From Candidatus Doudnabacteria bacterium RIFCSPHIGHO2_02_FULL_42_25 (GTDB lineage Bacteria > Patescibacteriota > Doudnabacteria > UBA920 > O2-02-FULL-48-8): a DNA stretch of 64,000 nt. The notes beneath the pieces are model-generated. The model was not told where the DNA came from and ran no database searches. It saw only the letters and a program-made list of their open reading frames with translations. The DNA is taken from the NCBI GenBank assembly GCA_001777665.1, contig MFEQ01000006.1, forward strand, positions 128,880 through 192,879, written 5' to 3'. The position numbers and the translations under genes were made by a program. Position 1 is the stretch's first letter; the number at the start of each line of letters is the position of its first letter. Shown piece by piece: positions 4,002 to 54,845 of the stretch.

Positions 4002-4238
4002 AAAAAATAAAATGCCTTATTTCAGGGCATTGGCAAAAAACACAAGCCTTCTTTCATCCAGACTATACTGTCGCCCCCGGAATTACACCGGATCATGTCC
4101 CGAATCGGGACTCGCGGGGTTTACCGCCGGTGGGGACATTCTCCCCGCCCTGAAGGTTACTTATTGCTTTTATTATATTTAGTAAATAGTAATTAGTAAA
4201 GAGTAATAAGAATTCTAGCTCTTATTACTAATTACTTC

Positions 4239-8384: not shown

Positions 8385-8385
8385 A

Positions 8386-9486: not shown

Positions 9487-9499
9487 ATTGTGCTATTAT
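9471..9499 (+). promoter_or_regulatory. sigma70-type promoter of GC-rich cassette 2
   Basis: TTGACA(9471-9476), 17 bp, TATTAT(9494-9499). Same tattgacaaaag context as cassette 1. ~120 nt leader. Confidence 0.6.
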
Positions 9500-9618
9500 G
9501 GATAGTTTATAATAGTTCTTTTTAAGGTATGAGTCTGTGTTTGGCTTTAATTTTTTAAAACTAGTCTCGGGCTCATACCAATAACTCACCTAACAGTTCA
9601 ACCTCGAATCAGGAGACG

Positions 9619-10233: not shown

Positions 10234-10270
10234 TCGAACGTGAGTCACACTCAAGGAGGGTGTGCGAATC

Positions 10271-10326
10271 AAAAAGGCGATCGGCCGAATTCCATTGTGG
10301 AATTCCCGCTCGCCTTTTGCTTTTGT
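10271..10326. terminator. Bidirectional terminator after cassette 2 / paralog C
   Basis: aaaaaggcga...(gaattccattgtggaattc)...tcgccttttgcttttg. Confidence 0.55.
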
Positions 10327-11364: not shown

Positions 11365-11367
11365 TTT

Positions 11368-12246: not shown

Positions 12247-12259
12247 ATATTTTTATTAA

Positions 12260-15138: not shown

Positions 15139-15141
15139 TAT

Positions 15142-16275: not shown

Positions 16276-16276
16276 T
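16248..16276 (+). promoter_or_regulatory. sigma70-type promoter of GC-rich cassette 3
   Basis: TTGACA(16248-16253), 17 bp, TACAAT(16271-16276). ~175 nt leader to ATG 16454. Confidence 0.55.
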
Positions 16277-16453
16277 TGATCGTTATAATTAAGTATTTAT
16301 AAATGCCGCAAGGCGTGAATAAATCGATTGTAACTTGTGTACCTTACAATCTAATGGTATGGGTTTATGCCTCAAGTTCTCAAGAGGACTTTGGACACGA
16401 ACCCATACCAAGATCTCAACTACTCACGTTCCACTTTCGTTCTGGAGAGCGAC

Positions 16454-17047
16454 ATGAAAACTCTGACCTATCGGCGCCATTCTTTGAAGGATGGCCACTA
16501 CATCAGCAAGGCTGGCATCGAACTGGCTCGGGATGAAGCTGAGGTGTACGAGAGCAGGCCGGACGCCGTGGAATTCAGCTGCGTTTTCCACGGACCATTC
16601 GTTCGTACTGCTCAGACCGCCCTCGCCTTCTGCTGCGCACTGACAGTGACGCCGCCGGACGCAATGCCGATCATCGAAGAAATCGGCAACGACGCGATCG
16701 TCGCTCTCATCGTCAACGATGCATTCAAGGCTGCGGTCGCCAAGGGCGAGTCCAACTATCAGGCGACCGTCTCGTCCCACAGTGCAACGGAGCTCAGCGA
16801 CCTCTCACGGACGGCGATGGCAGCGGTGACCAAGATGTTCGATGCGATGAAAGACAAGAACGACGTCGGAATCGCGTTTGGTCACAGCCCGATCATCGAG
16901 CTGGCTGTATGCAACATGTCCGGCCTGCCCGACGGCTGGAATGAGCTCAATGAGATGGATGGGCTGGTCCTCGAACAGGATGACGCCGGTCAGATTCGCG
17001 TCGTGGAGCTCATCCGCGCGAACCGCGAGCAGCCGGCGACGGCGTAG
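16454..17047 (+). CDS. GC-rich histidine-phosphatase (PGAM/SixA-like) family protein
   Basis: MKTLTYRRHSLKDGHY (RHS), HGPFVRTAQTALAF, IAFGHSPIIEL. Start moved from track ORF 16367 to the ATG at 16454, which has a ggagag SD; the GC shift begins here. Confidence 0.65.
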   Translation: MKTLTYRRHSLKDGHYISKAGIELARDEAEVYESRPDAVEFSCVFHGPFVRTAQTALAFCCALTVTPPDAMPIIEEIGNDAIVALIVNDAFKAAVAKGESNYQATVSSHSATELSDLSRTAMAAVTKMFDAMKDKNDVGIAFGHSPIIELAVCNMSGLPDGWNELNEMDGLVLEQDDAGQIRVVELIRANREQPATA

Positions 17048-17078
17048 TAGAGATCACCCCCGTAAGGGGCACAACCGC

Positions 17079-17127
17079 AAAAGGCGGGCATTTCCAGGTC
17101 AATATGACTGGACTGCCCGCCTTTTTT
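17079..17127. terminator. Bidirectional terminator after cassette 3 / paralog G
   Basis: aaaaggcgggca...tgcccgcctttttt. Confidence 0.6.
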
Positions 17128-17147
17128 CATTGTTATGTTTTTATCGT

Positions 17148-18644
17148 TTATAACTTTCGAACGATACCCTTATTTGCATCCACTTCGACTTTGTCACCAT
17201 CTTTTAAAACCTTCGTTGCTATTTTGGTACCAATAATGCACGGGGTGCCTAGCTCGCGAGAAACAATTGCTGCATGAGAAGTAATGCCGCCTTGTTCAGT
17301 AATAATTGCCGCAGCTTTTTTCATCGCAGGTACTACATCAACATCTGTAGCGATACTAACCAAAATATCGCCTTGTTTCATCTTCGGCATGTCCTTTGCC
17401 CTGATGATTATTTTCACGGTTCCTTTTGCATAACCAGGTTGAACGGTTTGGCCTGTAAATTCTTTTACATTTTTATTGATCTTCGTGGCTACCATTGATC
17501 TCAACTTTTTTTCCATTGCTCCCATGTATACAGTTTCAAAACCCTCTTCAGTATAAAGGACACAATGTTTTAATCTTATAGACAAAATATTTTTATCTAT
17601 CCTGCCATTTAATAAAGCATCTTTGACTTCTGCTTGAAGCATAAATTGGAGTTGATACCTAGAAATTCCAAGACGTTTTGCAATTTCCTTGAGTAATGTT
17701 TTATGAACAAAATATAAATTTAAAAGCTGGGCGTTTCTGCGAATTAGTTTTGACAACGCAAAATCTTTGGCGTTTTCGAAAAGCCTTTTATATTGCACAG
17801 AGACTTTTAATTTTTTATAGATCTTTTTCTGCTTCTCTCTAGCGGTTTTCAAGTATTGTTCTTGCTTTGCCAATATTTTCTTGGTATTGATTCCTGTTTT
17901 CGCTAATTCGAATAATTCTTTGAGATAGTGATCCACTCCAAAGGGATCAACATTCCCAGCGTAAATGTAGCCGAGATGACCCCATTTTTGCGCATGCTTA
18001 GTTAGGGCATCTTTCAAATGCTGAGGTATAGTTCTCGCTTTAAGAAATTTTTTGTATTTCTCATGAATAACTAGGAAATCTTTCCGCTCATCGGCGACGA
18101 TAGTTTTCCTTGAGGGCGTAGTTAAAACAACAAATGCCTGTTCTGCCTCTTCTTTACTGTTACTAACTGCGTATAAATAGCTCTTTAATTTATTCGTGAA
18201 ATTATTATGAAATAAGTCTGCGGCAACCGGTATCCACCCATAGGTATAAAGTTTGGTCTGAAGCTTATCGGTATCCTTGTACAATTTCCAAAGCTGCTTA
18301 TTATTATATTTCTCAAGCGGTAACTTATCTAATTTCTTGGAAAACAAAATTAACTTATGGGACCAAGAAATAATGTTTCTATCCAGTTCTTTACCGAATT
18401 TAGGTCTTTCTAGCAATGCTCTTATAATTGATTCAGCAACTTCATTGGAGTCTTTTTCTCCAACATAAAAATCCAAAGTAAAACCTTTGTATAGTCCCAA
18501 GAACTTTTTGTATCTTTTTATAAAATCGTAACTCCAATCAGAAGCAAAACAAGAGGCCGGGACTTGGAAAAAATAAATATCGCAATCCGGAATATTTTCT
18601 CCAAAAAGCCACTTGTCCTTATCAAACAATAACTTCGGCTTCAT
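17148..18644 (-). CDS. Swivel-domain paralog G (long class)
   Basis: 498 aa. ...ITEQGGITSHAAIVSRELGTPCIIGTKIATKVLKDGDKVEVDANKGIVRKL. Overlaps H by 4 nt. Confidence 0.8.
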   Translation of the reverse strand: MKPKLLFDKDKWLFGENIPDCDIYFFQVPASCFASDWSYDFIKRYKKFLGLYKGFTLDFYVGEKDSNEVAESIIRALLERPKFGKELDRNIISWSHKLILFSKKLDKLPLEKYNNKQLWKLYKDTDKLQTKLYTYGWIPVAADLFHNNFTNKLKSYLYAVSNSKEEAEQAFVVLTTPSRKTIVADERKDFLVIHEKYKKFLKARTIPQHLKDALTKHAQKWGHLGYIYAGNVDPFGVDHYLKELFELAKTGINTKKILAKQEQYLKTAREKQKKIYKKLKVSVQYKRLFENAKDFALSKLIRRNAQLLNLYFVHKTLLKEIAKRLGISRYQLQFMLQAEVKDALLNGRIDKNILSIRLKHCVLYTEEGFETVYMGAMEKKLRSMVATKINKNVKEFTGQTVQPGYAKGTVKIIIRAKDMPKMKQGDILVSIATDVDVVPAMKKAAAIITEQGGITSHAAIVSRELGTPCIIGTKIATKVLKDGDKVEVDANKGIVRKL

Positions 18645-20107
18645 ACTTTTCTTACGATTCCTTTGTCTGCATCCACTTCAATCATATCCCCATCTTTAAA
18701 AAGCTTAGTTGCGAATTTAGTACCAATGACACACGGTTTCTTCATCTCGCGAGCAACAATTGCAGCATGAGATGTGATGCCTCCACTATCGGTAACGAAC
18801 CCACGCGCTCTGCCCATTGCGGGTAAAACATCTGGAGTTGTAGTAACCGCAACGAGAATATCGTCGTGGGTAACTTTTTGTAGATCTGGAATCCCAAACA
18901 CTAATTTCGCCCGTCCTCGTGCTTTGCCCGGGAATGCAGATTGACCCTCGATGTAATCTTGTTTAATCTCAATGGCTTTTTCAAGAATTCTACCCAAGGT
19001 CGCATCGATTTTATTTGCAGGAATAAACTTAATTTTTCTATTCGAAACAATTTTAAGCACTCGGTGCCTTCTCCTTAAAATTTCAACCGTATCTATTTTT
19101 TTACCTGAAACGAAATCTAAAATCTCGTTCCTTAGTGCATAGCGAAAAAAGTAAACAGGGACCGCATGTTTTTTTGCTAATTGAAGAAATACTGTCTCTA
19201 AAGCATATTGAATGACATGTCGAACATTTAGCCGATAGGCTTTCGTAAACATAAGCGTACGCGCTTGATCAAACATATAAATTTCGTGGTCGGATAACCC
19301 AAGATCTTTTTCTATTCTCCTTTGTTCTTTTTCTAAATTTCTGAAGTAGTTTCTATGTTCATTCAACTGCTCTTGAGCAGTTTTTTCATTCTTGAGAATT
19401 TTCCTCACTCTCTGAATAAAATCTTCATCTGTCCAAAGTGGACCTTGATAACCAAAATTTAACCACTTGTACTTTTTAGCATGGGCTTTAAATTTCTTGG
19501 AAACAACTATTTTATTGAGAGTTTTATACTGCTTTATTATTTCTAATAGTCTCAATAGCTCTGCCCAATTTAAATCAGGTTGATCGGGACTAATCAATAT
19601 TGCCAAATACTTCTGCGTGGGATTCTTGGGAGTACTATATTTCTCTAAAATTCCTGCGAGACGATTGCTGAAAAAATTGTGATCATAATCACTTACAACA
19701 GCTAAGCAGCCCAATCCGTTTAACTCAACGTAATGTTTGAACACTTGTTTTAGCCACGAAAGATATTTCTTATCATTCCACCTTCTCAAATCTTGATCAA
19801 TGACTTGATGAGCAAGTTTAAAGACAATTTGGCCATGATAAATATGCTCTTCTAAATTGCCGTGAGCATCTAGTTTTCCTTTGGTCAATCTATCTTGGAT
19901 TTTTTGGCCGAGTCTATTCCACAATTTAATATCTACACCCCATTGACCTTCATCCTGACTGACATGCATTACGGTGTTACTAAAATAGTCACCGACAAAT
20001 CGCTTTACAGATGGTGAGAACAGAAACCCATCCTCAATCATTGTCCATGAAAACAAGTTCATATTTGTTTCCATTATTAAGTTTTTTATCGAGTGCGGTT
20101 TAATCAT
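18641..20107 (-). CDS. Swivel-domain paralog H (long class)
   Basis: 488 aa. ...VTDSGGITSHAAIVAREMKKPCVIGTKFATKLFKDGDMIEVDADKGIVRKV. Overlaps the ATP-grasp gene by 4 nt. Confidence 0.8.
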   Translation of the reverse strand: MIKPHSIKNLIMETNMNLFSWTMIEDGFLFSPSVKRFVGDYFSNTVMHVSQDEGQWGVDIKLWNRLGQKIQDRLTKGKLDAHGNLEEHIYHGQIVFKLAHQVIDQDLRRWNDKKYLSWLKQVFKHYVELNGLGCLAVVSDYDHNFFSNRLAGILEKYSTPKNPTQKYLAILISPDQPDLNWAELLRLLEIIKQYKTLNKIVVSKKFKAHAKKYKWLNFGYQGPLWTDEDFIQRVRKILKNEKTAQEQLNEHRNYFRNLEKEQRRIEKDLGLSDHEIYMFDQARTLMFTKAYRLNVRHVIQYALETVFLQLAKKHAVPVYFFRYALRNEILDFVSGKKIDTVEILRRRHRVLKIVSNRKIKFIPANKIDATLGRILEKAIEIKQDYIEGQSAFPGKARGRAKLVFGIPDLQKVTHDDILVAVTTTPDVLPAMGRARGFVTDSGGITSHAAIVAREMKKPCVIGTKFATKLFKDGDMIEVDADKGIVRKV

Positions 20108-21039
20108 AGTGTTGTTATTGGTCTGCTTTGAGTAATGTAAAACTTACCCTTAACATAAGCCCACTCGATGTCTTGAGGATGTTTGTAATGTTTTTCAATA
20201 TTTTTTGCAATTTTAGCAAACTCTACAATTTGTTTACCAGTCAGTTTCTGTTTGCCACCGGCTCTTGGTGATAATTTTTTGTGCAAATTCTTATTCCCGG
20301 ATTTTACTATCATCATGCTTTGCTCCGAGACATTGATATCGAGAATAGAAAAATCATCTTTATGAACGATATATGTATCCGGAGTTACCGATCCTGAAAC
20401 AATCGCCTCGCCCAAACCAAAACCAGCTTCAATCACCATTTGATTATAATCTTTGGTCACTGGGTGTACCGTAAAGCAAATTCCAGAAACTTCGGATTGG
20501 ACCATGGTTTGGACGACTACTGCCACAGAAACAAATTTTTTGTGGAGTTTTTTCTCAAACCGATAAAAAATAGCTCGTGGAGTAAATAGTGATGACCAGC
20601 ATTTCTGGACATTTTTCAGCAAATCTTTTTCAGTAGTATTGAGGTAAGTTTCCAGCTGCCCTGCCCATGCATCAGTTGAGCTGTCTTCTGCGGTTGCCGA
20701 TGAACGCACAGCAACAAAACGACTTTTCAAAAGTTTGAAGTGCTTTTTAATTTTCTCGGCTATGTCCCTCGGCATTTTTGCACCAGCTATTAATGCTCTG
20801 ATTTTTTCCGAAGCCCGCTCGACACTATTGATATCTTTGTGATTAACTTTTTTCAAAATCGATTCAATCTCCACATCCAAATCAGTTTCTTTTAGAAACT
20901 GCTCAAAAGAAGATGCCAGCACGACGAAACCTGGCGGTACTGGAATTCGAGCATTCGTCATTTCACCAAGCGAAGCCCCTTTACCACCGGCTTCAGAAAC
21001 ACTCTTCTTATTTAGTTGTTTGAAAGATTTGATAAACAT
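20104..21039 (-). CDS. Stand-alone PEP-synthase/PPDK-type ATP-grasp nucleotide-binding domain protein (PPDK_N)
   Basis: 311 aa. SEAGGKGASLGEMTNARIPVPPGFVV (GGKGANLGEM...VP.GF signature) ... FVAVRSSATAEDS ... EIEWAYVKGKFYITQSRPIT (PPDK_N domain end). No swivel or TIM-barrel domain in this gene. Confidence 0.8.
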   Translation of the reverse strand: MFIKSFKQLNKKSVSEAGGKGASLGEMTNARIPVPPGFVVLASSFEQFLKETDLDVEIESILKKVNHKDINSVERASEKIRALIAGAKMPRDIAEKIKKHFKLLKSRFVAVRSSATAEDSSTDAWAGQLETYLNTTEKDLLKNVQKCWSSLFTPRAIFYRFEKKLHKKFVSVAVVVQTMVQSEVSGICFTVHPVTKDYNQMVIEAGFGLGEAIVSGSVTPDTYIVHKDDFSILDINVSEQSMMIVKSGNKNLHKKLSPRAGGKQKLTGKQIVEFAKIAKNIEKHYKHPQDIEWAYVKGKFYITQSRPITTL

Positions 21040-22225: not shown

Positions 22226-22360
22226 CTTGTAGCGAGGATTAAATTTTTGGACGCTTTGCGTATTTCTTCAGAAATCGCAACGCGAGTAAAAATCTACTCT
22301 GAAGTACATAACAGTTGCAGATTTTTACGTTCACAAAAATTTCAATCCGAGCGTTCTTGG

Positions 22361-22431
22361 TCGGGGTGCCGGGAATTGAACCCGGTCTACACCCACCCCA
22401 TGGGCGCGTACTACCGGTATACTACACCCCG
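22361..22431 (-). tRNA. tRNA-Pro (anticodon GGG)
   Basis: Hand-folded. Acceptor CGGGGTG/CACCCCG, anticodon stem CGCCC/GGGTG, loop ATGGGGT (U33, GGG, G37), T-arm CCGGG-TTCAATT-CCCGG, discriminator A. 71 nt, no encoded CCA. Confidence 0.8.
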
Positions 22432-23614
22432 TTCTTCGCAGACTCTATTATAGTTAATTTTTAGAGATAAAAAAAGAGGTCCAACTAGTTGCTAGTTGTA
22501 ACCTCGGTCCTCTTCGTGAGGATCGTCCTCGTCGCCAGGATCAGGACCGCTCTCGAAATCTGGCGGGGATTTCGAGTCAGACTCAGTCTGCTCAGGTACC
22601 AATGGTTCGGGACTCGACATACTCATCTTCTCTCTACTGTTTCAAACCGGGCGGCCAATCGTCGACCAAATCGGTCAAAGCGCGCCCCAACATTCACCTG
22701 AAGCTCGAAGGACTGGCTCGGCAGTTGTCGCTGCGGACAACACCTCCGATTGTGACCCGGCTGCCGGCATAGTGCACAAATCTTCTTTCTTCGTCCCTGG
22801 ATGTTCGACATGGACACTCCTATGTCTGGGTCTTGGGTTTGCAGGGTTGGATCGTAATGGGCATTCCCTTCTGACACCGACCACAGATTTTTCCTTCACG
22901 ACCAGCCTCGTCGTGAGATGGGTCAGGCTCATATCCGGCATTGCGTTCGAGTGTTGTGGGCGCCATGTTCACCTGCCTATCCGGCGTAGCGTTCGTTGAC
23001 GATGTCTTCATCCGGATCAACGTATTGAACCGGAGGGTGCCTTAGTTCTTCCTCCTGTGGAGTCATTCGTTCATCGTTCGACTGCTGGTGTGCGTCCATA
23101 ACCTGGCCTTCCTCCAGTATCAGCTGGGACATATGTTTCCTCCGTGACCTTGGTCTTGCTGTCTAGTGTAGTGTTGCTGAATTCACATCTCATGTTCCTA
23201 TTTTTCATAAAATCTGAATTCAGACTTGGCCAACAAAAATCCGACCACTTCGGTCGGTTCATTCAGCTTGATCTTTGATCGTTGTTACGTGATCATTGAC
23301 GCTTATCTGAACCGACTCGAACTGGGACTTGGTCAACCTTAATAATCCCCAAAACGATTTGGGCGATAGAGGAGATCAAGTTGTGGATAGTTAGTCGATT
23401 CATCCCGTTAGAAATAATGATTAGTTGCTTGATAATAATCGTTTATAATTGCCACACTAGATTATATTTTAACAATAGCTTTTTACTATGTCAAAATTTC
23501 TAACGGTATTCATAAACTTAGTAATATTATATAGCAGCAAAAAAACTAAGTCAACAAAGCCTATCACAATAGTTACCTATTTGCCCCATATGGGGCAAAT
23601 AGGTACTCACCGGA

Positions 23615-23645
23615 AAAGAAAAAAGGTCAAGAACGGGTCTTGACC
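23615..23645 (-). terminator. Rho-independent terminator (minus) after ORF 23662-23946; adjacent perfect palindrome 23576-23603
   Basis: ggtcaaga-acggg-tcttgacc stem with a T-run on the minus strand. Neighbouring cctatttgcccca-tat-ggggcaaatagg 12-bp stem. Confidence 0.5.
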
Positions 23646-23661
23646 TAAGGACTGAATCAGG

Positions 23662-23946
23662 TTACAGCCAGAGTGACAGCGGAGTGGGCTGCCATGTGCG
23701 ATTGAAGGCACGATGGCGCCTAGCCACCTCGGCGCGTTCACGTCTGACGTCGTTGAGGTACGTCAGATGGGTGATCTGCGTTTGTGCAGCTCTCAGCTGA
23801 TCTTCCTCAAGCCTCGTCCGCTCCGGCTTGGATTCAAAGCGTCGGACCTTTCTTAGCAGCGTTCTGATTTCCTTCTGACGACCGCTGATCGTGCGTAGGA
23901 GCGGATCCCGCATTGCAATGCCCGGTGTTTTCACAAACATTAGCAT
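23662..23946 (-). CDS. Hypothetical Arg-rich small protein in GC-rich island
   Basis: 94 aa ORF followed by a terminator. No motif. Coding status uncertain. Confidence 0.3.
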   Translation of the reverse strand: MLMFVKTPGIAMRDPLLRTISGRQKEIRTLLRKVRRFESKPERTRLEEDQLRAAQTQITHLTYLNDVRRERAEVARRHRAFNRTWQPTPLSLWL

Positions 23947-24663
23947 CTCCTCTACGACATAAACTCTGACGCTTTGCTTCCGGGTGGGGTCGAACCGACA
24001 TCGATGGGTCTTGCCGTTTTGCGACTGCCCGTCGGTGACGGGACAGCCTTGGGCTGCTTACCCTCTACAGCTGGATCGGGATCCACAGGACGGGTAACCT
24101 GCTCGGGTTTCAACGACATATTGTTATTCCCCCTTAAAGCTACGGCAGATAAAAAAAACACCAGCCGGATGGCTGGGTTCGGTTTGCGAAAATTTCTATG
24201 CAAACTCAACCAACCACCTCGGGATGGCTAAACCAAAAATAGAAATTCGGTCTGATTGATTGCATAACAAAAGTATTATAATGCCTAGGAACCAGAGAGT
24301 CAAGGCATAAAAAAGGACCCAGGCACCCTGAGAAGGGTGCACTGGGCTCAAGACGTACGACGCTAATTCCTCGGCGTCTTACGTCGATCGACTTTAGGCC
24401 GCAATCCAAGGAAACATGTCTGGTCCGATAACGCCTTTGGTGTCGTCCCGCTAGATACGCAGGCACAACTCAGGACGTCGACTCCCGCTTGCCTGATGAC
24501 GGTGACCTCTTTGTGATCACCAACTTCGATGAATTTTGCGGCAGTTTCTTCAGCTCTGGCCAATCAATCCTCCTATCAAGCAAACAAAAACACCGGCCAA
24601 CTGGGTCAGTGTTTGCATTTGCAAACCTTGAGTAAGTTTACATGTAGTTTAGCTTTGTGTCAA

Positions 24664-24755
24664 TAGGCGCGTCTGGCGTTATTCGTCGGCGCCACGCGTA
24701 TCGTCTGACGGTTACCGATACGCGCTGCGCTGCCGTACAATCATTAACGCATTTT
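24664..24755. repeat. GC-rich palindromic repeat element (copy 1) immediately 3' of parB
   Basis: cgttattcgtcg-gcgccacgcgtatcg-tctgacggttac-cgatacgcgctgcgc...ttaacgcatttt. Second, inverted copy at 52971-53040. Confidence 0.6.
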
Positions 24756-24756
24756 A

Positions 24757-25689
24757 TTACTCTTGAAGTCTCTTCACTTTGTCCAAGAAATTTTGGAGTT
24801 CTTCTTGGGAGAAAAATTCAATAGTGATTTTTCCGGCTTGGCCGCTTTTTTGAACCTTGACTTTGGTCCCAAATTTGCTGCGTAGATCACTTTCCAAAGC
24901 TGCAGACTCAGGATCAACTGGGCCTCGAGGCGCTTTGACCTGTTTCGGACGTTCCAGCATTTCTCGAACTTTGTCTTCGACTTGGCGCACAGTCATTTGT
25001 TGCAGGACGATCATATCGTACAAAGCCAACTGCTTCTCCATTCCTGGTAAAGCCAGGATAGACCGCGCATGCCCTTCAGTGATTTTACCTTCGGCGAGAG
25101 CATTTTGAATTTTCAGTGGCAAATTCAAAAGTCGCAACATATTCGTCACAGTTGTGCGACCCTTACCCACTTTCTTCGCAACTTCTTCTTGAGTCAGTTT
25201 GTACTGATCAATCAATTGTTTATAAGCCAGGGCTTCTTCGATCGGGTCTAGGTTATGACGCTGAATGTTTTCAATCAAAGCCAATTCCAATTTGTTCTGC
25301 TCTTCCAGATAATCGCGAATCACCACAGGGACTTTCGCCAACCCGGCCATTTTTGAAGCACGGAGTCTGCGTTCCCCGACGATCAACTGAAAAGTGCCAT
25401 CAGGAAGTGGAACCACAACCAACGGTTGCAGGATGCCGTGTTCTTTGATGGAAGCAGATAATTCAGCTAACTTTTCATCGTCAAAGACTCTTCGCGGCTG
25501 CCAGGGATTGGGTTTGATAATCTCGACTGGAATTTCCGCCATGCTGACCATGGGCAGATTCTCCGGTACGGCTTCCTTCACCGGTTCGGCCAGAGGCTCG
25601 GCCAATTCCATGGGGCTAGCAGGTGGCAGCTCTGGTGTTTCTACAATTTGAGAAATTGGTTCTAAAGGTTGTTGTGCTGGTTCATCCAT
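24757..25689 (-). CDS. parB: ParB/Spo0J partition protein with Pro/Glu-rich N-terminal extension
   Basis: QPRRVFDDEKLAELSASIKEHGILQPLVV...GERRLRA (ParB box II) ... HTH KVGKGRTTVTNMLRLL. No parA adjacent in this window. Confidence 0.85.
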   Translation of the reverse strand: MDEPAQQPLEPISQIVETPELPPASPMELAEPLAEPVKEAVPENLPMVSMAEIPVEIIKPNPWQPRRVFDDEKLAELSASIKEHGILQPLVVVPLPDGTFQLIVGERRLRASKMAGLAKVPVVIRDYLEEQNKLELALIENIQRHNLDPIEEALAYKQLIDQYKLTQEEVAKKVGKGRTTVTNMLRLLNLPLKIQNALAEGKITEGHARSILALPGMEKQLALYDMIVLQQMTVRQVEDKVREMLERPKQVKAPRGPVDPESAALESDLRSKFGTKVKVQKSGQAGKITIEFFSQEELQNFLDKVKRLQE

Positions 25690-48260: not shown

Positions 48261-49357
48261 TGTCCTGGTTCATATGATACCCTGCAATTGACTGGAAGAA
48301 ATTATGAGGGGCAGATACTCTGGTAGGACTATGACAACATATGGATATATCCTTCCTGGAGCAAGTAAGATTGCAAGATTAGCAACTAGTCTAAGCTCCA
48401 AAGCCAAACATCGAATTAAAGTCATTGACTGGTATAGAGCTCATGGCAAGAACAAAAGCTTAACAGCTAGGTATTTTGGAATGAACCGAGAGACATTGGA
48501 TATCTGGCTTGATCGGTTCAAGCTTCAAGGCATCAAAGGCTTGGAGGATCGATCGCATAGACCTAAACATTTAAGAACTACGAGCACGCCTTTGCCAGTC
48601 CAAGATGAAGTAGTCAAACTCAGAAAAGCTTTCCCGTATTACTCTAAATACAAAATCGTTCATTTGCTCTCAACGAAAATTAGTTCATCAACTGTCGGTA
48701 GGATATTAAAAAAGAAAGATTTAATTAATCCCAAAGTATCTAGAAAGAAAATTAAAGCAGCTAAGCACCCCAAGAAGCGATTTCCAAGGGAGTTAGTCGT
48801 AAATATGCCAGGAAAACTAATCCAAATTGATACTAAGCATCTGAGAACCTTTCAGGGAGTAAAGATCTACCAGTTCACGGCTATTGATGTTTTAACCAAA
48901 GTTCGAGTGCTTTGGGTGAGTACACATTTATCATCTGTCATGGCTGCAAAGTTCTTAAGGCACTGTGTTAGAAGTTTCCCCTTTAAGATCGAGAATATTC
49001 AAACAGACAATGGTTCAGAATTTAACAAACATTTTGACCGTTTGTGCCAGAAGCTTGGAAACACCCATTATTACATCGAGGCACACAGTCCCCAGCAGAA
49101 CAGCTACGTCGAACGCTCACACTTAACTGATGAGCTTGAGTTTTATCAGCAAGGTAACATGCATAATACTTTGGGCCAATTGCTTCCAAGGCTTAAGGCT
49201 TGGGAACATCAGTACAATCACCAAAGACCACATCAATCGCTCAACTACTTAACACCGATTCAGTATTTAAAAAAGTATCAAACTGAAACTTTAGCCACTA
49301 AAGATTACGTTGCATTACAAACTAACTAACTGTCGGATATCTATCTGAACCTAGACA
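48261..49357 (+). mobile_element. IS481-family-like insertion sequence with ~22-bp imperfect terminal IRs and 5-bp TSD (gatag)
   Basis: IRL tgtcctggttcatatgatacc (48261-) versus rc of IRR tgtctaggttcagatagatatcc (-49357). gatag at 48256-48260 and 49358-49362. Confidence 0.7.
48304..49329 (+). CDS. DDE transposase (HTH + rve integrase core)
   Basis: N-terminal HTH. Catalytic core IQIDTKHL...FTAIDVLTK...IQTDNGSEF...SPQQNSYVERSH (D, D, 35, E). Confidence 0.85.
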   Translation: MRGRYSGRTMTTYGYILPGASKIARLATSLSSKAKHRIKVIDWYRAHGKNKSLTARYFGMNRETLDIWLDRFKLQGIKGLEDRSHRPKHLRTTSTPLPVQDEVVKLRKAFPYYSKYKIVHLLSTKISSSTVGRILKKKDLINPKVSRKKIKAAKHPKKRFPRELVVNMPGKLIQIDTKHLRTFQGVKIYQFTAIDVLTKVRVLWVSTHLSSVMAAKFLRHCVRSFPFKIENIQTDNGSEFNKHFDRLCQKLGNTHYYIEAHSPQQNSYVERSHLTDELEFYQQGNMHNTLGQLLPRLKAWEHQYNHQRPHQSLNYLTPIQYLKKYQTETLATKDYVALQTN

Positions 49358-49416
49358 GATAGCTTTTCAAAACAAAATAAGCTATGCTTACGGCTCAGAA
49401 CAGAGGAGGAGTCACC

Positions 49417-50337
49417 GTGAAAAAGCTGGTCCTGCTTGTACTGCTAACGACTGCTGTGGGTACTGCGCACGCACAGCTCATTCAACCCCGGACGATTACC
49501 AACATAGAGGACTTATCACGAATCGGCGCCGAGATGCCGACCAACACCGAAACCTACGACGTTTACAAGGTCGGGGGCCGCTACCAAATCTACTACTTTC
49601 AAGTATCCTCTTTCAGTACGATGCTGGATTACCTGGGCCGGGTATTGCTCTGGAGCGATCTCCAAACTACCCAACTCAAGGGTCTGGGGGACGGCGTCAT
49701 CAACCAGCTCGACGACTACAACCATGATGGCAAGCTGGACGAAAAGGATGTCCTCTACGCCGTACTCGTTATATGGGGCGCTCGAGGACAAGCCGCTGGA
49801 GTCACCTACGATCTTGCGCATACCATGAAAGCGTTCAATGCTTACCTCGCGGCAGGAAGGACACTCCAGGTCTCTATGAGTCGAGCAGAAAGGTCGTTTC
49901 TCTCTGACCTCGAACGCTTCGGTTTGATCAAAGAGATCAGTGGTCAGTACGAAGTCCTGAAGCCGGCGTCGATAGTCATGGTCCAGCCACTCAATTTTTT
50001 CCGCGATCTGGATCCGAAGTCGGTCATTCTCCACGAGCTGAATCATGCAGTGGTTTTCCAAGAGCCGCGGTTCCGTCAGGCCGTAGCCGAAATATGGAAA
50101 ACCATGTTGCCGGCCGAGCAGGCTGCTATCAAAGAGCGCCTAGGTCGTATCGGACTCAATGTCGAGAACTTTGAACTGCTGACTGAGGAATTCGCTGCCT
50201 ATGCGGAAGAGGGGTTTACTGACTCTGTTCTCAATTCGTTCGGAGAACTAAACCTCATAGTGCCTTCGGCAACCCTGACACGTTTACAGGGAGCAGTAGT
50301 ACAGGCACTTAAGACCTTCAACGCCTTCGGTCAATAA
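49417..50337 (+). CDS. GC-rich secreted protein with HExxH zinc-peptidase motif
   Basis: GTG start with gaggagga SD. Signal peptide VKKLVLLVLLTTAVGTAHA. VILHELNHAV motif. GC-rich codon usage. Confidence 0.55.
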   Translation: MKKLVLLVLLTTAVGTAHAQLIQPRTITNIEDLSRIGAEMPTNTETYDVYKVGGRYQIYYFQVSSFSTMLDYLGRVLLWSDLQTTQLKGLGDGVINQLDDYNHDGKLDEKDVLYAVLVIWGARGQAAGVTYDLAHTMKAFNAYLAAGRTLQVSMSRAERSFLSDLERFGLIKEISGQYEVLKPASIVMVQPLNFFRDLDPKSVILHELNHAVVFQEPRFRQAVAEIWKTMLPAEQAAIKERLGRIGLNVENFELLTEEFAAYAEEGFTDSVLNSFGELNLIVPSATLTRLQGAVVQALKTFNAFGQ

Positions 50338-50456: not shown

Positions 50457-51422
50457 ATGCCAGAAACCAAATCAAAACTCCAAAGATATTACCAACAATT
50501 CCTGGAATATTTAGAAATCGAACGCAATCGATCGAAATTAACTTTGCGTAATTACGATCATTATCTGAAGCGCTTCGTAGATTTTTGCGCATCGCGCGGT
50601 GTAAATGATCCTGAAGATGTAGATTTAGAATTAGTTCGATCATTTCGACTTTTTTTAAACCGGATGACTGCCAAAGATAAGAATCTAAAAATCATTACCC
50701 AAAATTATCATCTCATTGCCCTACGCAGTTTTTTGAAATATTTAGCCAGACGTGATGTAAAATCTTTAACTGCCGAAAAAATTGAGTTACCTAAAACACC
50801 AGGCCGTACTGTGGAATTTCTGGATATCGATGACGTCGAGCGGCTCATCAAATCTACAGATGAAGAAAAAAGCAAACTCACTCGCCTACGCGACCGCGCA
50901 ATTTTGGAAATGCTTTTTTCCACCGGTCTTCGAATTTCCGAGCTAGTCAGCATTAAGAAAGACGGTTTGAACCTGAAAAGGGGGGAGTTTGCCGTCCGCG
51001 GCAAAGGCGACAAAATGCGTCTGGTCTTTCTCTCTCACAAGGCCATCGAATCACTGAATCAATACCTAAAAGAAAGAAAAGATAACTCAAAAGCCTTGTT
51101 TATCCGCCATGATGCCAAAGAATCAGTGGATAAACAAATGGAGTCAATGTCCGAATCCGCCAGCTGGCGGACTGGCTTAACACCCAGATCGATCCAGCGA
51201 ATTATAAAAAAATATGCGAAACTCGCTGGTATTACGAAAAAAATTACACCACATACTTTAAGACATTCCTTTGCGACAGATTTGCTAACCAATGGCGCTG
51301 ACCTGCGCTCGGTTCAAGAATTACTTGGCCACTCGTCTATTTCTACCACACAAATTTATACTCACCTTACAAATAAGCGTCTCCGCGACGTCTATGAAAA
51401 CTTCCACCGATTAGGCAAGTAG
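50457..51422 (+). CDS. Tyrosine site-specific recombinase (XerC/XerD-like)
   Basis: N-terminal SAM-like domain. Catalytic R...LRHSFATDLL...HSSISTTQIYTHL (R-H-R-H-Y). Confidence 0.85.
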   Translation: MPETKSKLQRYYQQFLEYLEIERNRSKLTLRNYDHYLKRFVDFCASRGVNDPEDVDLELVRSFRLFLNRMTAKDKNLKIITQNYHLIALRSFLKYLARRDVKSLTAEKIELPKTPGRTVEFLDIDDVERLIKSTDEEKSKLTRLRDRAILEMLFSTGLRISELVSIKKDGLNLKRGEFAVRGKGDKMRLVFLSHKAIESLNQYLKERKDNSKALFIRHDAKESVDKQMESMSESASWRTGLTPRSIQRIIKKYAKLAGITKKITPHTLRHSFATDLLTNGADLRSVQELLGHSSISTTQIYTHLTNKRLRDVYENFHRLGK

Positions 51423-51473: not shown

Positions 51474-51854
51474 ATGGTCGACACTCCCAGCGTCAGTCGC
51501 GCGGCAGCCGTGCAAAAAGTCGTGATCGTCAACGGCAACACCGAAGTGCTTGGAATGGTTGAGCCCATTCTGGAAGCCGGTCGCTACGACATGGTGTTCG
51601 TGGAAACCGATGAACATGCCTATTCGCAGATCAAAAAACAGCTACCGAGTCTCGTCATCCTCTGCACCCGCATCGAGCACCTCGACGGTTTCCAGCTCCT
51701 GACTATGCTCAAACTCGATCCTGCGACTAAGGACATCCCAGTTCTGACCTGCACCACCGAGCATGAGGGCCAGGACTTCGACACCGCCATTAGCCAACTG
51801 GCTGACGAAGAGGAAGACACAATCCCGAGTCAGCCAGCGCTGCGAATGAATTAG
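51474..51854 (+). CDS. GC-rich receiver-like (pseudo-receiver) domain protein
   Basis: CheY-like layout KVVIVNGN...VFVET...LVILCTRIEHLDGFQLLTMLK, but the phospho-acceptor Asp position is Cys and the acidic pocket is degenerate. Confidence 0.45.
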   Translation: MVDTPSVSRAAAVQKVVIVNGNTEVLGMVEPILEAGRYDMVFVETDEHAYSQIKKQLPSLVILCTRIEHLDGFQLLTMLKLDPATKDIPVLTCTTEHEGQDFDTAISQLADEEEDTIPSQPALRMN

Positions 51855-52084
51855 GGGGCCTATGAGACCCCAACCACAAGCCAGCTGGGCACTTTTCTGC
51901 CCACTGGCTATTCTTTTGGACTTTCAACCACTAATTTATAATATATAGGTAAGATAATTTGTAATATGAAAGGCTACAAAATGAGGGCAATTTGTCTTTC
52001 TTGCCACGTCCAAAAATTAACCATTTGTTCACGATCGTATATTAATGGTTAAAAACCAGAATACTCCGACGCTACGGATCGGAG

Positions 52085-52267
52085 TTATTTTTGCTTCGCA
52101 AAAATAACAAAAGCGCCGGGGACTATGCTGGGAAGAATAGTCCTCGAATTTTGGCCGCGTCGCTGAAAAGGACGAATAGCTTCTACGACTTTGTCACGCG
52201 AGATTTCGATGTCATCGAGATGGGTATTAGGAAACGCCGACTCGAGTACATGTGTCCAATCAGCCAT
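52085..52267 (-). CDS. Hypothetical small protein
   Basis: 60 aa ORF followed on the minus strand by hairpin ctccga..tcggag + T-run. Weak. Confidence 0.25.
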   Translation of the reverse strand: MADWTHVLESAFPNTHLDDIEISRDKVVEAIRPFQRRGQNSRTILPSIVPGAFVIFAKQK

Positions 52268-52349
52268 GGTATTCCTCCTTTTGGACTGATTCCTTATAAA
52301 AGTCTAGTACCAGATTGAAACCTTGTCTAGGGTCAGTTACAATAATGGC

Positions 52350-52994
52350 ATGAGTTTAAAAACTTATCACAAAAAACGAAAATTTAACGAGACACCGGAA
52401 CCAAAAGGTAGAGCTGTTAAAACAGCAAAGGCTTTACACTTTGTAATCCAAAAACACGAAGCAACTCGGCTGCATTATGATTTTCGGCTCGAGCACCGAG
52501 GCGTACTTTTGAGTTGGGCCGTACCGAAAGGTCCAGCTTTAAGAGTAGAGGATAAAAGATTGGCTATGATGGTCGAGGATCATCCGGTCGACTATATGAA
52601 ATTTGAAGGCACGATTCCAGAAGGGAATTATGGCGCTGGGACCGTCATGGTTTGGGATTTTGGGAATTATTTAGCGCTTGGAGCGGATTCATTAGCAGAA
52701 AGCGAAAAATTGATCAAAGCCGGGCTGAAAAAAGGAGAATTGAAATTTATATTGAATGGCAAAAAACTTCAGGGCGGATTTGCATTGATCAAAACTAAAT
52801 TTGGCGGAGCCAAAAATTCTTGGCTCCTGATCAAAGAAAAAGATCAGTATGTCAAAAATGTTGATGTGACAAAGAAAGCTAGGTCAGCACTAACTGGGAA
52901 ATCTATGACGCAGATATCTAAAGGCGATAGAATCTGGAAAAGCAATAAGAAAAAGCGTCTTAAGTTTATCGGCAGCGCCACGCGTATCGGTTAA
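52350..52994 (+). CDS. LigD 3'-phosphoesterase (PE) domain protein, stand-alone
   Basis: KRKFNETPEP...HFVIQKHEATRLHYDFRLE..GVLLSWAVPKGP LigD_N/PE signature. Start at 52350. Confidence 0.8.
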   Translation: MSLKTYHKKRKFNETPEPKGRAVKTAKALHFVIQKHEATRLHYDFRLEHRGVLLSWAVPKGPALRVEDKRLAMMVEDHPVDYMKFEGTIPEGNYGAGTVMVWDFGNYLALGADSLAESEKLIKAGLKKGELKFILNGKKLQGGFALIKTKFGGAKNSWLLIKEKDQYVKNVDVTKKARSALTGKSMTQISKGDRIWKSNKKKRLKFIGSATRIG

Positions 52995-53040
52995 CGTAAG
53001 ACGATACGCGCAGCGCCGACGAATAACGATTAACGCATTT
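52971..53040. repeat. GC-rich palindromic repeat element (copy 2) spanning PE stop to ligase start
   Basis: ggcagcgccacgcgtatcg-gttaacgtaaga-cgatacgcgcagcgc-cgacgaataacg-attaacgcattt. Inverted relative to 24664-24755. Confidence 0.6.
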
Positions 53041-53961
53041 ATGCGATATATCAAACCCATGCTAGCAACTTTAGTCAAAGAACCCTTCAATCGTGAGGGG
53101 TGGATTTTTGAGATCAAATGGGATGGCTTCCGTGCAGTTGCTGATATTAATCGCTCCGAAGTTCGGCTTTATTCCAGAAATTTTTTAAATTTTAACGAAA
53201 AGTTTCAGCCAATTGTCCAAGCTTTGCAAAAACTCAAACTCCAGGCAATTTTTGACGGTGAAGTTGTCGTCCTCGACAAACGCGGCAAATCGCATTTCCA
53301 GCTGCTTCAAAATTTTCAGGAAACAGGGGAGGGACAACTAACCTATTACGTCTTTGACATTTTAAGCTTGAATGGTAAAAATCTGATGACCACTCCCCTC
53401 CTGGAACGAAAAAAAATTTTGAAGAAAATTTTGCCCAAAAATAAGCTAATTAAGTACTCGGATCACATAGAAAAAAACGGGATTAATTTTTTCAAAATTG
53501 CGAAGAAAAGTGGGTTGGAAGGAATCATAGCCAAAGAAGCTTCAAGTCCCTATCGACCTGGAAAACGAACCCTAGAATGGCAAAAAATCAAGGTTCACAT
53601 GCAGCAAGAAGCTGTTATAGCTGGCTTTACCGAACCCCGGGGTGGTCGCAAAAAATTCGGAGCTCTAGTTTTAGGAGTTTATAACAGAGACAAATTAGTT
53701 TATATCGGTCATACTGGTGGTGGCTTTAATGAAGAAAGTTTAAATCTGATTTACAATAAGCTGAAACCGATAGTGCAGAAGCGATCCCCTTTTGATGTAG
53801 CTCCCAAAACCAATACCCCGGTAACCTGGGTCAAACCCAAATTAGTCTGTGAGATTACTTTCAGTGAATGGACCTCTGATGGGCACATGCGACAACCGAT
53901 TTTCCTCGGGATTCGACCAGATAAAAGTCCAAAAGAAGTAAAACGAGAAAGACCAATATGA
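53041..53961 (+). CDS. ATP-dependent DNA ligase (LigD ligase-domain type)
   Basis: Motif I EIKWDGFR (KxDG), ...YVFDIL..., OB domain. 306 aa. Confidence 0.85.
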   Translation: MRYIKPMLATLVKEPFNREGWIFEIKWDGFRAVADINRSEVRLYSRNFLNFNEKFQPIVQALQKLKLQAIFDGEVVVLDKRGKSHFQLLQNFQETGEGQLTYYVFDILSLNGKNLMTTPLLERKKILKKILPKNKLIKYSDHIEKNGINFFKIAKKSGLEGIIAKEASSPYRPGKRTLEWQKIKVHMQQEAVIAGFTEPRGGRKKFGALVLGVYNRDKLVYIGHTGGGFNEESLNLIYNKLKPIVQKRSPFDVAPKTNTPVTWVKPKLVCEITFSEWTSDGHMRQPIFLGIRPDKSPKEVKRERPI

Positions 53962-54845
53962 AAAAAGAAGTAAAATTATCCAATCTTAAGAAAATTTTTT
54001 GGCCAAAAGAAAAAATTACTAAGGGTGATGTGATTAATTATTATGAAAAAATATCTCCTTACATCCTCCCCTACCTCAAAGACCGACCAGAGTCCCTAAA
54101 TCGTCATCCAAATGGAATTAATGGAGGAAGTTTTTTTCAAAAAGACGTAGACCACATGCCACCGGCTTGGGTTAAAACCCAAAAGGTGTTTTCAGAGTCC
54201 ACAGATTCCGATATTAATTATCTGGTCTGCAATGATAAAGAAACCTTACTTTACATGGCCAATTTGGGTTGCATCGAAATCAATCCCTGGTTTTCTACAA
54301 CCAAACATTTAGAAAAACCGGATTATGCAGTGCTAGATTTAGACCCGGAAGAAATTGGGTTCGACAAAGTTATCGAGGTCGCACAGGCCACGCATAATAT
54401 TTTAGAAAAGTTAAAAGTCCTCAATTATTGCAAAACGTCAGGAGCCACTGGACTTCATATCTATATTCCACTGGGTGCGAAATATTCTTATGAACAAGCA
54501 AAACACTTCATCCAACTAATCGCAGCCCTCGTAAATAAAAAACTACCGGACATTACCAGTTTGGAGCGAAGGCCAGCTAACCGAAAGAAGAAAATCTATT
54601 TGGATTATTTACAGAATCGTAAAGGACAAACATTAGCAGCTCCTTATAGCTTGCGCCCGAAGCCTGGTGCTCCTGTGGCTACTCCCTTAGAATGGAGGGA
54701 AGTCAAAAAAGGATTGAAGCCCACAGATTTTCATATCAAAAATATTTTTACTCGATTAAACAAAAAAGGTGATCTGTTCAAGCCTGTGCTGGGCAAAGGC
54801 ATTGACCTATCGACCACCCTTAAGCGAATAGAGAAACTAAGCTAG
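53958..54845 (+). CDS. LigD polymerase/primase (PrimPol) domain protein, stand-alone
   Basis: ...LNRHPNGINGGSFFQKD..., LDLDP catalytic motif, ...SGATGLHIYIPL.... 4-nt overlap with the ligase gene. Confidence 0.8.
   Translation: MKKEVKLSNLKKIFWPKEKITKGDVINYYEKISPYILPYLKDRPESLNRHPNGINGGSFFQKDVDHMPPAWVKTQKVFSESTDSDINYLVCNDKETLLYMANLGCIEINPWFSTTKHLEKPDYAVLDLDPEEIGFDKVIEVAQATHNILEKLKVLNYCKTSGATGLHIYIPLGAKYSYEQAKHFIQLIAALVNKKLPDITSLERRPANRKKKIYLDYLQNRKGQTLAAPYSLRPKPGAPVATPLEWREVKKGLKPTDFHIKNIFTRLNKKGDLFKPVLGKGIDLSTTLKRIEKLS

Follow-up and report, generated by a model that had tools for sequence, protein, structure and literature searches.

A probable three-gene LigD-type repair operon with ku deleted from its locus in a Doudnabacteria-related Patescibacteria chromosome

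The window analysed here, a 64,000-nucleotide stretch of the chromosome of a Doudnabacteria-related groundwater member of the Patescibacteria (CPR), probably carries a real repair operon of the LigD type (archaeo-prokaryotic NHEJ) made up of three genes, PE, LIG and POL in that order, at which ku has been deleted and for which we infer a Ku-independent mechanism. The sequence-only reading of this DNA had proposed that each LigD module is its own gene in this order, and the ORF calls and domain profile matches agree with it. Judged from the genes alone, their adjacent and co-oriented arrangement is that of operonic split AP-NHEJ of the Methanocella type. The features of the locus are collected in Table 1.

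Table 1. Features of the LigD-type locus and of related elements in the window
Feature	Position	Strand	Basis or remark
Palindromic repeat element, second copy	24670..24756	.	Same orientation as first copy; 2 nt from stop of minus-strand gene 24757-25689
IS with rve transposase	48304-49329		Upstream of module, 3 kb away; strain-specific
xerC-like tyrosine recombinase gene	50457-51422		Upstream of module
Response-regulator receiver gene, left syntenic anchor	51474..51854	+	Pfam Response_reg; 70% identical to L009 ortholog, E 1e-51
Putative deletion/replacement scar, 495 bp	51855..52349	.	Slot of ABC transporter (+/- GDE_C, glycosyltransferase genes) and ku in closest relatives
Terminator-like hairpin after orphan ORF	52063-52085		Prediction
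Orphan 60-aa ORF in gap, possible gene	52085..52267	-	ORF call; no homolog in L007, L009, L172
Promoter-like site TTGAAA-17-TACAAT	52315..52343	+	Consensus match only, 10/12; ends 7 nt before PE ATG
PE, stand-alone LigD-type 3'-phosphoesterase, 214 aa	52350..52994	+	Pfam, NCBIfam, PDB matches
Palindromic repeat element (REP/MITE-like), ~85 nt	52956..53040	.	Hairpin spans PE stop codon
LIG, stand-alone NHEJ-type ATP-dependent DNA ligase, 306 aa	53041..53961	+	Adenylation and OB domains
POL, stand-alone LigD-type primase-polymerase (Prim-PolD), 295 aa	53958..54845	+	Start overlaps LIG stop (ATGA)

PE matched LigD_N in Pfam (5e-41; PF13298, 139.6 bits against a cut-off of 31.1) and TIGR02777 in NCBIfam (211.6 bits against a curated cut-off of 144), and its PDB matches were 2LJ6 (8.5e-48) and 5DMP (1.8e-45). 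The catalytic residues H36, H42, D44, R46, H78 and Y82 are present, are invariant in a six-sequence alignment and align to the metal- and phosphate-binding H42, H48, D50, R52, H84 and Y88 of Pseudomonas aeruginosa; as a minor difference, P. aeruginosa D15 corresponds to K11 in PE, both here and across the clade. The start used for PE is the ATG chosen by the gene callers, and a TTG at 52323 is also possible. LIG matched DNA_ligase_A_M (2e-36) and DNA_ligase_A_C (2.5e-29) in Pfam and TIGR02779 in NCBIfam (322.1 bits against a curated cut-off of 227.75), and aligned end to end with PDB 1VS0, the ligase domain of M. tuberculosis LigD (4.6e-51), with the motif I lysine K26 lying within EIKWDG. The LIG ATG has no clear Shine-Dalgarno sequence upstream. 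POL matched LigD_Prim-Pol (2.8e-92; PF21686, 309 bits) and TIGR02778 (256.7 bits against a curated cut-off of 214.7), its PDB matches were the Methanocella NHEJ Pol 5DMU (6.5e-51) and 2FAO (4e-36), and D127 and D129 (DLD), D216, S161-G162...H167 and F59-F60 are all present. The cut-offs of the full-length LigD equivalogs were not reached (TIGR02776, 283-286 against 373; NF004628, 233-309 against 895) because each protein is one domain only. These profile and structure matches show each gene to be predicted to encode one complete LigD domain with its catalytic residues intact.

In the four closest relatives (L172, L009, the P0005 contig and L010), ku-PE-LIG-POL is found at the same syntenic site, within the shared order pnp-rpsO-xerC-RR-ABC..., and in L172 ku is only 2 nt from PE. 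Identity to these relatives is 74-81% for PE, 75-76% for LIG and 81-83% for POL. Their response-regulator gene is followed by an ABC transporter gene on the minus strand and then, ahead of PE, by ku. Here the same interval is a 495-bp gap in which tblastn detected no ABC or ku remnant (all E>0.1), and which has no nucleotide similarity to the ku region of the relatives. In a neighbour-joining tree of Pol the window is nested among Ku-positive relatives, and a second Ku-less lineage, L007 (GCA_037200925.1), falls in a different subclade beside Ku-positive members; this is a simple tree of one protein, in which the Ku state of many tips is taken from Pol and Ku occurring on contigs of equal size and not from inspected loci. 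Because the closest relatives have ku and the window nests among them, ku and the ABC transporter gene were in all likelihood deleted here. The segment that held both, between the response-regulator gene and PE, would have been replaced by the 495 bp of unrelated sequence. Judged from these comparisons, the loss of ku at the locus is a derived deletion that left no detectable trace, and the position of L007 shows what appears to be an independent loss from the same locus.

The earlier reading had noted the absence of ku from the vicinity and had named a ku gene just outside the window as the finding that would speak against it. Its observation is borne out: tblastn with the closest CPR Ku gave only E>1 in the 64-kb window, and the 10 kb flanking it on each side likewise contained no Ku; the inspected sequence amounts to 84 kb, and the contig itself measures 355-412 kb or more. 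Ku may nevertheless lie elsewhere in the genome, only the linkage being lost, in which case the trio would join double-strand breaks by canonical NHEJ in its non-conventional (split) form. This is the most serious alternative, and is considered possible though rather unlikely. In ~25% of genomes with conventional NHEJ, ku lies further than 10 kb from ligD (PMC7719229), at many GTDB loci with LigD of this type ku is either missing from the surrounding 10 kb or sits ~7 kb off, the module itself is intact and not accelerated, and the part of the genome inspected is 84 kb. In the Ignavibacteria loci L025-L031 a divergent Ku type, 37-39% identical to CPR Ku, is encoded ~7 kb downstream of the module; a divergent ku, or one on another contig, would not have shown up among the best 120 matches listed. 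Against this, the position that ku holds in the relatives is vacant here, with no remnant, and no Ku at least ~61% identical to that of the clade was found, among the matches listed, either on contigs of 412,798, 354,944, 344,722 or 964,444 bp or with the JGI, Logan and ENA multi-sample signature of this organism. For ~20 relatives, Ku and Pol could easily be matched through contigs of equal size, and the 964-kb contig of L007 also has no paired Ku among the matches listed. One Ku, P0203, was the sole Ku on many contigs among the matches listed, and was rejected as that of this organism as it comes from different samples and adjoins a fused LigD; it belongs to a different organism. A CPR Ku profile scan of JGI contigs relied on patterns too generic to be informative, and its listed matches were ~45-56% identical and missed known CPR Ku genes.

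That the genome truly has no Ku is judged moderately probable, and the locus is consistent with the 'LigD only' state (LIG present, genome without Ku). With regard to non-conventional NHEJ as used by Sharda et al., the LigD domains are on separate proteins and Ku is absent from the 84 kb inspected.

The spacer between PE and LIG was described in the earlier reading as occupied by a palindromic repeat, and computation of the hairpin confirmed this, giving a core stem of 9 bp and a loop that contains the PE stop codon (dG -33.5 kcal/mol, z -2.5). The two copies of the element are 88% identical over 59 nt and share an identical ATTAACGCATTT tail, with 0 matches expected by chance; they are the only two in the 64 kb, and each is located at the 3' end of a gene. 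No further copies were found in the extra 20 kb flanking the window or in the relatives, and an Rfam search returned no family, only sub-threshold miRNA-hairpin noise. PE and LIG abut or overlap in the relatives, where the palindromic insert is absent. The last 12 residues of PE, RLKFIGSATRIG, are encoded by the inserted element and this tail is missing in the relatives. From its sequence, the palindrome is most readily classed as a two-copy REP/MITE-like insertion. The ~85 nt would have been inserted between PE and LIG later than, or independently of, the ku deletion, adding 12 codons to PE and breaking the stop/start coupling seen in the relatives. A small palindrome in an operon junction may in this way have rewritten a protein C-terminus, which would represent REP/MITE-like remodelling of genes in a CPR genome.

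In a three-taxon relative-rate test the rate on the window branch was 0.85x for PE, 1.16x for LIG and 0.73x for POL, with controls at 0.62-0.77x. The strain variant L173 differs by 0-1 substitutions per gene, which gives no power for dN/dS. Divergence of the module tracks that of housekeeping genes, therefore vertical inheritance is indicated, and the module shows no sign of decay in its sequence. If the ku deletion is recent, as it may be, this lack of decay says little on function without Ku. The module could be a functionless relic, in which ku was deleted recently, PE, LIG and POL await decay and the palindrome insertion was the first step; we regard this as improbable. The REP-like insertion did change the PE C-terminus and remove the translational coupling of the relatives, LIG is preceded by no clear Shine-Dalgarno sequence, and the near identity of the strain variant points to a young population. 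However, none of the three ORFs is truncated and each catalytic residue that was checked is intact, the window branch is not lengthened relative to the Ku-positive sisters, the catalytic core of PE (residues 1-202) is untouched by the insertion, and the independent Ku-less lineage L007 also keeps the three genes intact.

The sequence-only reading had also linked the module to neighbouring mobile elements, a suggestion that found no support. Under it, the module would heal ends made by the IS with its rve transposase or by the tyrosine recombinase; both are indeed encoded upstream, but this role is very improbable, as the xerC-like gene keeps its syntenic place near the module in every relative examined, the two being part of a block of housekeeping genes (pnp, rpsO ... 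purS, purD), as the strain-specific IS, 3 kb off, is absent from L007, L009, L172 and L175, as no joint mobilisation of the module with the IS or the recombinase was observed in other genomes, and as the divergence of the module, tracking that of housekeeping genes, indicates vertical inheritance.

The three genes are separate, complete ORFs, all on the plus strand, in different frames and with stops in between. PE ends at an in-frame stop and is followed by a 46-nt spacer that lies inside the palindrome, while the LIG/POL junction reads ...CCA ATA TGA / ATG AAA..., so that the 4-nt overlap reported earlier (ATGA) can be read directly. A leaderless or near-leaderless operon transcript could begin from the promoter-like site ahead of PE. 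The same three-gene layout with identical junctions occurs in 24 contigs from JGI, ENA and Logan assemblies, and the layout is also present in the strain variant L173, which is 99.8% identical; the split is therefore not a sequencing error. A more distant CPR relative, L175, has one fused 833-aa LigD at the same syntenic locus, with ku (a fused ku-ligD locus), and the window proteins are collinear on it (PE 1-203 to 1-210, LIG 4-303 to 225-524 and POL 5-294 to 545-831), the gene boundaries falling exactly in its two inter-domain linkers. Thus, the possibility that the ORFs are pieces of a single LigD gene, split by frameshift errors in sequencing or assembly, which had been named as a test of the split and which might draw on the existence of relatives with fused PE-LIG-POL genes and on some long-read MAG loci (L010, L044, L064) with extra, error-like breaks, is already effectively refuted and carries next to no weight, given the same junctions in the 24 independently assembled contigs and the variant strain, the in-frame stop with its spacer and the clean ATGA overlap, a complete domain in every ORF, and the three-gene form of the CPR relatives L007, L009 and L172, whose junction details differ.

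A census of fusion state across 80 GTDB loci and the fetched CPR loci counted 16 three-gene loci (the window included), 30 of the two-gene PE | LIG-POL type and 20 that are fully fused. Nearly all of the best 120 Pol homologues are stand-alone proteins of ~300 aa. The three-gene LigD is, as far as sequences indicate, the usual form in the Doudnabacteria-like clade. The earlier reading overstated the rarity of a fully split LigD, given the 16 census loci, the common stand-alone Pol homologues and a literature in which operons with LigD split into separate genes are already described (PMC4797286) and in which Sharda et al. define the 'non-conventional NHEJ' and 'LigD only' classes (PMC7719229). 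The split is ordinary for the clade and is no new architecture.

How the trio might act without Ku can be outlined from the established biochemistry of the three families. POL would bind the 5'-phosphate at a gap or break and add a few nucleotides, preferably from rNTPs, PE would trim excess 3'-ribonucleotides or a 3'-phosphate to leave one 3'-OH ribonucleotide, and LIG would seal the nick. Without Ku, the substrates of the module would be nicks, short gaps and simple breaks, with Pol-mediated synapsis in place of Ku bridging, and the mycobacterial LigC/Prim-PolC excision-repair pair would serve as its working model. By analogy with that pair we infer Ku-independent nick, gap or simple-break repair. 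Bacterial NHEJ is described as relying on Ku and LigD together (PMC9638933), and Ku-independent repair by the LigD family has been described (PMC5663958, PMC4770248). Counting against a role like that of LigC/Prim-PolC, POL is without Loop 3, which adapts Prim-PolC to short gaps. It is tentatively suggested, as a reading somewhat short of probable, that selection can act on a role of the LigD trio without Ku in ultra-small CPR genomes, such as ribonucleotide-patch repair of nicks, gaps or simple breaks at limited dNTP supply. If true, such a role would account for the retention of the three intact enzymes in at least two lineages (the window and L007) after ku was lost from an ancestral ku-PE-LIG-POL operon.

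Among Doudnabacteria-like Patescibacteria, with genomes of only ~1 Mb, the complete NHEJ toolkit (ku with PE, LIG and POL) occurs widely and is passed on vertically at a single conserved locus. NHEJ has been associated with large genomes by Sharda et al. (PMC7719229), and a search of the available literature for NHEJ or LigD in Patescibacteria/CPR found nothing relevant. The occurrence at one locus of fused, two-gene-type and three-gene forms, together with two apparently independent losses of ku in which the enzymes were kept, offers a natural experiment on the usefulness of LigD activities without Ku.

Of the known systems, the AP-NHEJ of Methanocella paludicola resembles this locus in having an operon that encodes Pol, Lig and PE as separate proteins (PMC4797286), and its structures are among the closest, the Mpa Pol (5DMU, 6.5e-51) being the best PDB match of POL and PE matching the Mpa PE (5DMP) at 1.8e-45. 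It differs in being archaeal and in that the reconstituted pathway uses Ku, whereas here the host is a CPR bacterium with ku deleted at the locus and none detected in the rest of the 84 kb inspected or among the matches listed. The LigD of P. aeruginosa shares the domain order PE-LIG-POL and all catalytic residues, and its structures are the best or second-best PDB matches for PE (2LJ6, 3N9B) and POL (2FAO), but it is a single polypeptide that acts with Ku. The closest CPR relatives (L172, L009, the P0005 contig and L010) have three separate genes at the same locus; unlike the window, they carry ku directly upstream together with the ABC transporter gene and have no palindrome between PE and LIG, and in L175 the three domains are fused.

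The mycobacterial LigC/Prim-PolC pair is not known to depend on Ku and, like the window, combines an ATP-dependent ligase with a LigD-like primase-polymerase. These enzymes fill 1-3-nt gaps with ribonucleotides and then seal them (PMC5663958, PMC7442782). Membership of this group was rejected for both proteins: LIG scores 134.5 against the LigC equivalog NF006078 cut-off of 296, and POL (295 aa) is without the C-terminal Loop 3 (residues 313-333) that defines Prim-PolC, aligning to 5OP0/6SA0 only as far as chain residue 273-278, with ~30 residues beyond and no Loop 3 match. The window differs further in having a PE gene in addition. Genomes with a LigD ligase and no Ku ('LigD only') are a common evolutionary intermediate, and 90% of them are without POL and PE domains (PMC7719229). 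Unlike these, the window keeps all three predicted activities, and appears to have reached this state through loss of ku and not as a step towards gaining NHEJ.

The sequence-only reading described the three LigD modules as separate ORFs in the order PE-LIG-POL, and this was confirmed at the positions claimed. The products matched Pfam LigD_N (PE; 5e-41), DNA_ligase_A_M and DNA_ligase_A_C (LIG) and LigD_Prim-Pol (POL; 2.8e-92), and each passed its NCBIfam equivalog: TIGR02777 for PE (211.6 against a cut-off of 144), TIGR02779 for LIG (322.1 against 227.75) and TIGR02778 for POL (256.7 against 214.7). All three fell below the cut-offs of the full-length LigD equivalogs in NCBIfam, as each is a single domain. 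Each ORF also aligned end to end with solved single domains: PE with those of P. aeruginosa (2LJ6/3N9B) and Methanocella (5DMP), LIG with M. tuberculosis LigD 1VS0, and POL with the NHEJ Pol of Methanocella (5DMU) and with P. aeruginosa 2FAO. The ORFs are all intact and catalytic residues are kept (H36, H42, D44, R46, H78 and Y82 in PE; K26 of KxDG in LIG; D127, D129, D216 and the SGxxGxH motif in POL). The LIG stop and POL start share an ATGA, the 4-nt overlap reported previously. Sequencing-error frameshifts of one gene can be dismissed as the source of the split, since the ORFs match solved single domains and the same layout occurs in a 99.8% identical strain variant and on all 24 examined contigs with an identical POL protein (41 index blocks; JGI, ENA and Logan assemblies).

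Features of the LigD locus and of other parts of the window
Feature	Position	Strand	Remarks
PE	52350-52994	+	ATG start picked by every gene caller; alternative TTG at 52323 possible
LIG	53041-53961	+	separate ORF
POL	53958-54845	+	separate ORF
Palindromic repeat, copy 1	~52956-53040		~85-nt imperfect palindrome; last 12 PE codons rewritten
Palindromic repeat, copy 2	24670-24756		orientation as copy 1; 2 nt from end of another gene
Promoter-like site	52315-52343		TTGAAA-17-TACAAT, consensus match only; ends 7 nt ahead of PE ATG
Terminator-like hairpin	52063-52085		consensus match only
IS element, rve-family transposase	48304-49329		between rpsO and xerC-like gene
Stretch from rve IS to xerC	49384-50337		varies among strain assemblies (L003, L173)
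GC-richer stretch (~0.47)	~22440-24760		~2.3 kb, short ORFs only; right edge is palindrome copy 2
tRNA-Pro(ggg)	22358-22431	-	flanks GC-richer stretch
Flanking gene	24757-25689	-	flanks GC-richer stretch
PPDK_N (ATP-binding) gene	20104-21039	-	3e-98
PPDK_N gene and paralog array	6927-21039	-	eight paralogs of 345-498 aa; interrupted by three unrelated genes
FMN riboswitch	4042-4161	-	98 bits, cut-off 66
EamA-type transporter gene	3063-4001		downstream of riboswitch

A fully split LigD had been considered unusual, which did not hold. The window has a GC content of ~41% and gene content typical of CPR, and the named homologues come from Candidatus Doudnabacteria, Yanofskybacteria, Paceibacterota and Parcubacteria; Ignavibacteria and Bacteroidota come next, with 60-68% identity. 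Among the best 120 Pol homologues nearly all stand alone, at ~300 aa. When 80 GTDB loci and the CPR loci were classified, 20 had a fused PE-LIG-POL, 30 a two-gene form (PE and LIG-POL) and 16, including the window, three genes. Genomes of 'non-conventional NHEJ' and of 'LigD only' type have already been defined (PMC7719229), and split LigD as such is therefore neither novel nor out of the ordinary. In loci with full flanks ku adjoined upstream in 25, lay within 10 kb in seven and was absent within 10 kb in ~20; three-gene loci without ku in that range numbered five (the window, L007, L012, L016 and L032). In L175, a more distant CPR relative (8001-11292, Logan SRR30502244), the xerC-response regulator-ABC synteny is kept and ku is followed by one fused 833-aa LigD. 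The window's PE, LIG and POL are collinear with it, their boundaries falling at its two inter-domain linkers, and LigD has therefore undergone fission or fusion at a single conserved locus in this CPR group. Candidatus Doudnabacteria NC_groundwater_1147 has a LigD-type Pol that stands alone (L047:6404-7240; 63% identical); PE, LIG and ku all went undetected across the 17 kb of that locus.

The closest relatives with usable context (L009, L172, the P0005 contig and L010, with Pol identities of 83%, 81%, 79% and 79%) share the order pnp - rpsO - xerC-like - response regulator - ABC transporter (minus strand) - (GDE_C, glycosyltransferase) - ku - PE - LIG - POL, with 2 nt between ku and PE in L172. 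In the window, the response regulator (70% identical to that of L009) lies just 495 bp from PE; this gap holds a 60-aa orphan ORF, and no ABC or ku remnant was detected in it. An NJ tree of Pol nests the window among the Ku-positive members P0002, P0003, P0005 and P0006. L007, a Doudnabacteria MAG with the three-gene module on a 964-kb contig, likewise lacks ku at the locus and falls in another subclade next to Ku-positive members. The parsimonious reading is that an ancestral ku-(PE-LIG-POL) locus lost ku twice independently. Ignavibacteria/Bacteroidota MAGs (L025-L031) carry another Ku type, which diverges from CPR Ku (37-39% identity) and lies ~7 kb downstream of POL in a two-gene module, not directly upstream; ku near this LigD type is therefore not always of one lineage.

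The absence of a nearby ku, noted from sequence alone, was upheld by tblastn, which gave only E>1 matches in the 64-kb window, and no ku was found in the 10 kb past either edge, where a gene just outside might have lain. When the clade's Ku was used as query, the matches listed included many Ku proteins from CPR (74-86% identical), and in ~20 relatives Pol and Ku sit on contigs of identical length. The representatives and cluster members listed, down to ~61% identity, included no Ku on contigs of 412,798, 354,944 and 344,722 bp or on L007's 964,444-bp contig, and none listed carried the window organism's JGI+Logan+ENA multi-sample signature. P0203, the sole Ku on many contigs among those listed, was rejected as this organism's Ku and belongs to another. 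A ku on another contig of this genome, or a divergent one of the 37-39% type found in some Ignavibacteria, could be missed; nevertheless, true absence from the genome is somewhat the likelier state, the circumstantial evidence being good if not proof.

In a three-taxon relative-rate test (window, L009 and L172, the latter two Ku-positive), the window branch evolved at 0.85x (PE), 1.16x (LIG) and 0.73x (POL) the mean of its sisters, compared with 0.77x for the xerC-like gene and 0.62x for an M29 peptidase as housekeeping controls. There is thus no clear acceleration, LIG being slightly above the controls; the strain variant is too similar for dN/dS within the Ku-less population. Module divergence tracks that of neighbouring housekeeping genes, which fits vertical inheritance. 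The suggestion that the module serves neighbouring mobile elements gained no support, as the xerC-like neighbour is conserved across all the relatives examined and the rve IS is strain-specific (present in the window strain and variant L173, absent from L007, L009, L172 and L175).

The promoter-like and hairpin matches are consistent with PE-LIG-POL being its own putative transcription unit, and the position of the -10 element hints that the PE mRNA is leaderless or nearly so. The palindrome reported between PE and LIG was found, the 46-nt spacer lying within it; its hairpin has a 9-bp core stem and a loop that contains the PE stop codon (dG -33.5 kcal/mol, z = -2.5). In relatives, where no palindrome was found at the locus, PE and LIG abut or overlap and PE ends in ...WKSNKKK; the window PE carries 12 additional C-terminal residues, RLKFIGSATRIG. 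Copy 2 is 88% identical to copy 1 over 59 nt and has an identical ATTAACGCATTT tail, and both copies are at gene 3' ends. Without a T-run the palindrome is not a canonical intrinsic terminator, and it matched no Rfam family; the best reading is a REP/MITE-like insertion by which PE/LIG translational coupling was broken. The GC-richer stretch ending at copy 2, also without an Rfam match, may represent either the decayed remains of an insert or non-coding sequence that lacks annotation.

Elsewhere in the window, the eight paralogs following the PPDK_N gene form an unusual array, each with a C-terminal PEP-utilizers swivel domain (PF00391, 1e-22 to 1e-26) and 270-420 N-terminal residues without a Pfam match. 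The FMN riboswitch and EamA-type transporter gene, beside a flavokinase-like gene, look like a standard riboflavin-uptake arrangement.

Taken together, the sequence-only observation stands and its interpretation is supported in part. The locus is a split AP-NHEJ/LigD operon in a CPR bacterium, with its own ku lost. Three points deserve to be kept: an NHEJ locus is conserved in CPR genomes of ~1 Mb, ku has been lost repeatedly with the enzymes retained, and a palindromic repeat has inserted where two genes of an operon meet. On the established biochemistry of these enzyme families (PMC4797286, PMC8656161, PMC5663958, PMC7442782, PMC4770248), POL would bind the 5'-phosphate of a gap or break, adding a few nucleotides, preferably ribonucleotides; PE would remove surplus 3'-ribonucleotides or a 3'-phosphate, and LIG would seal a nick bearing a 3'-OH monoribonucleotide. 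With Ku present this would be canonical split NHEJ; without it, the likeliest role would be to mend nicks, short gaps and simple breaks. The latter would resemble in function the mycobacterial LigC/Prim-PolC excision-repair pair. The window proteins are not members of that pair: the LigC equivalog score is 134.5 (cut-off 296), and Loop 3 is missing from the window Pol.
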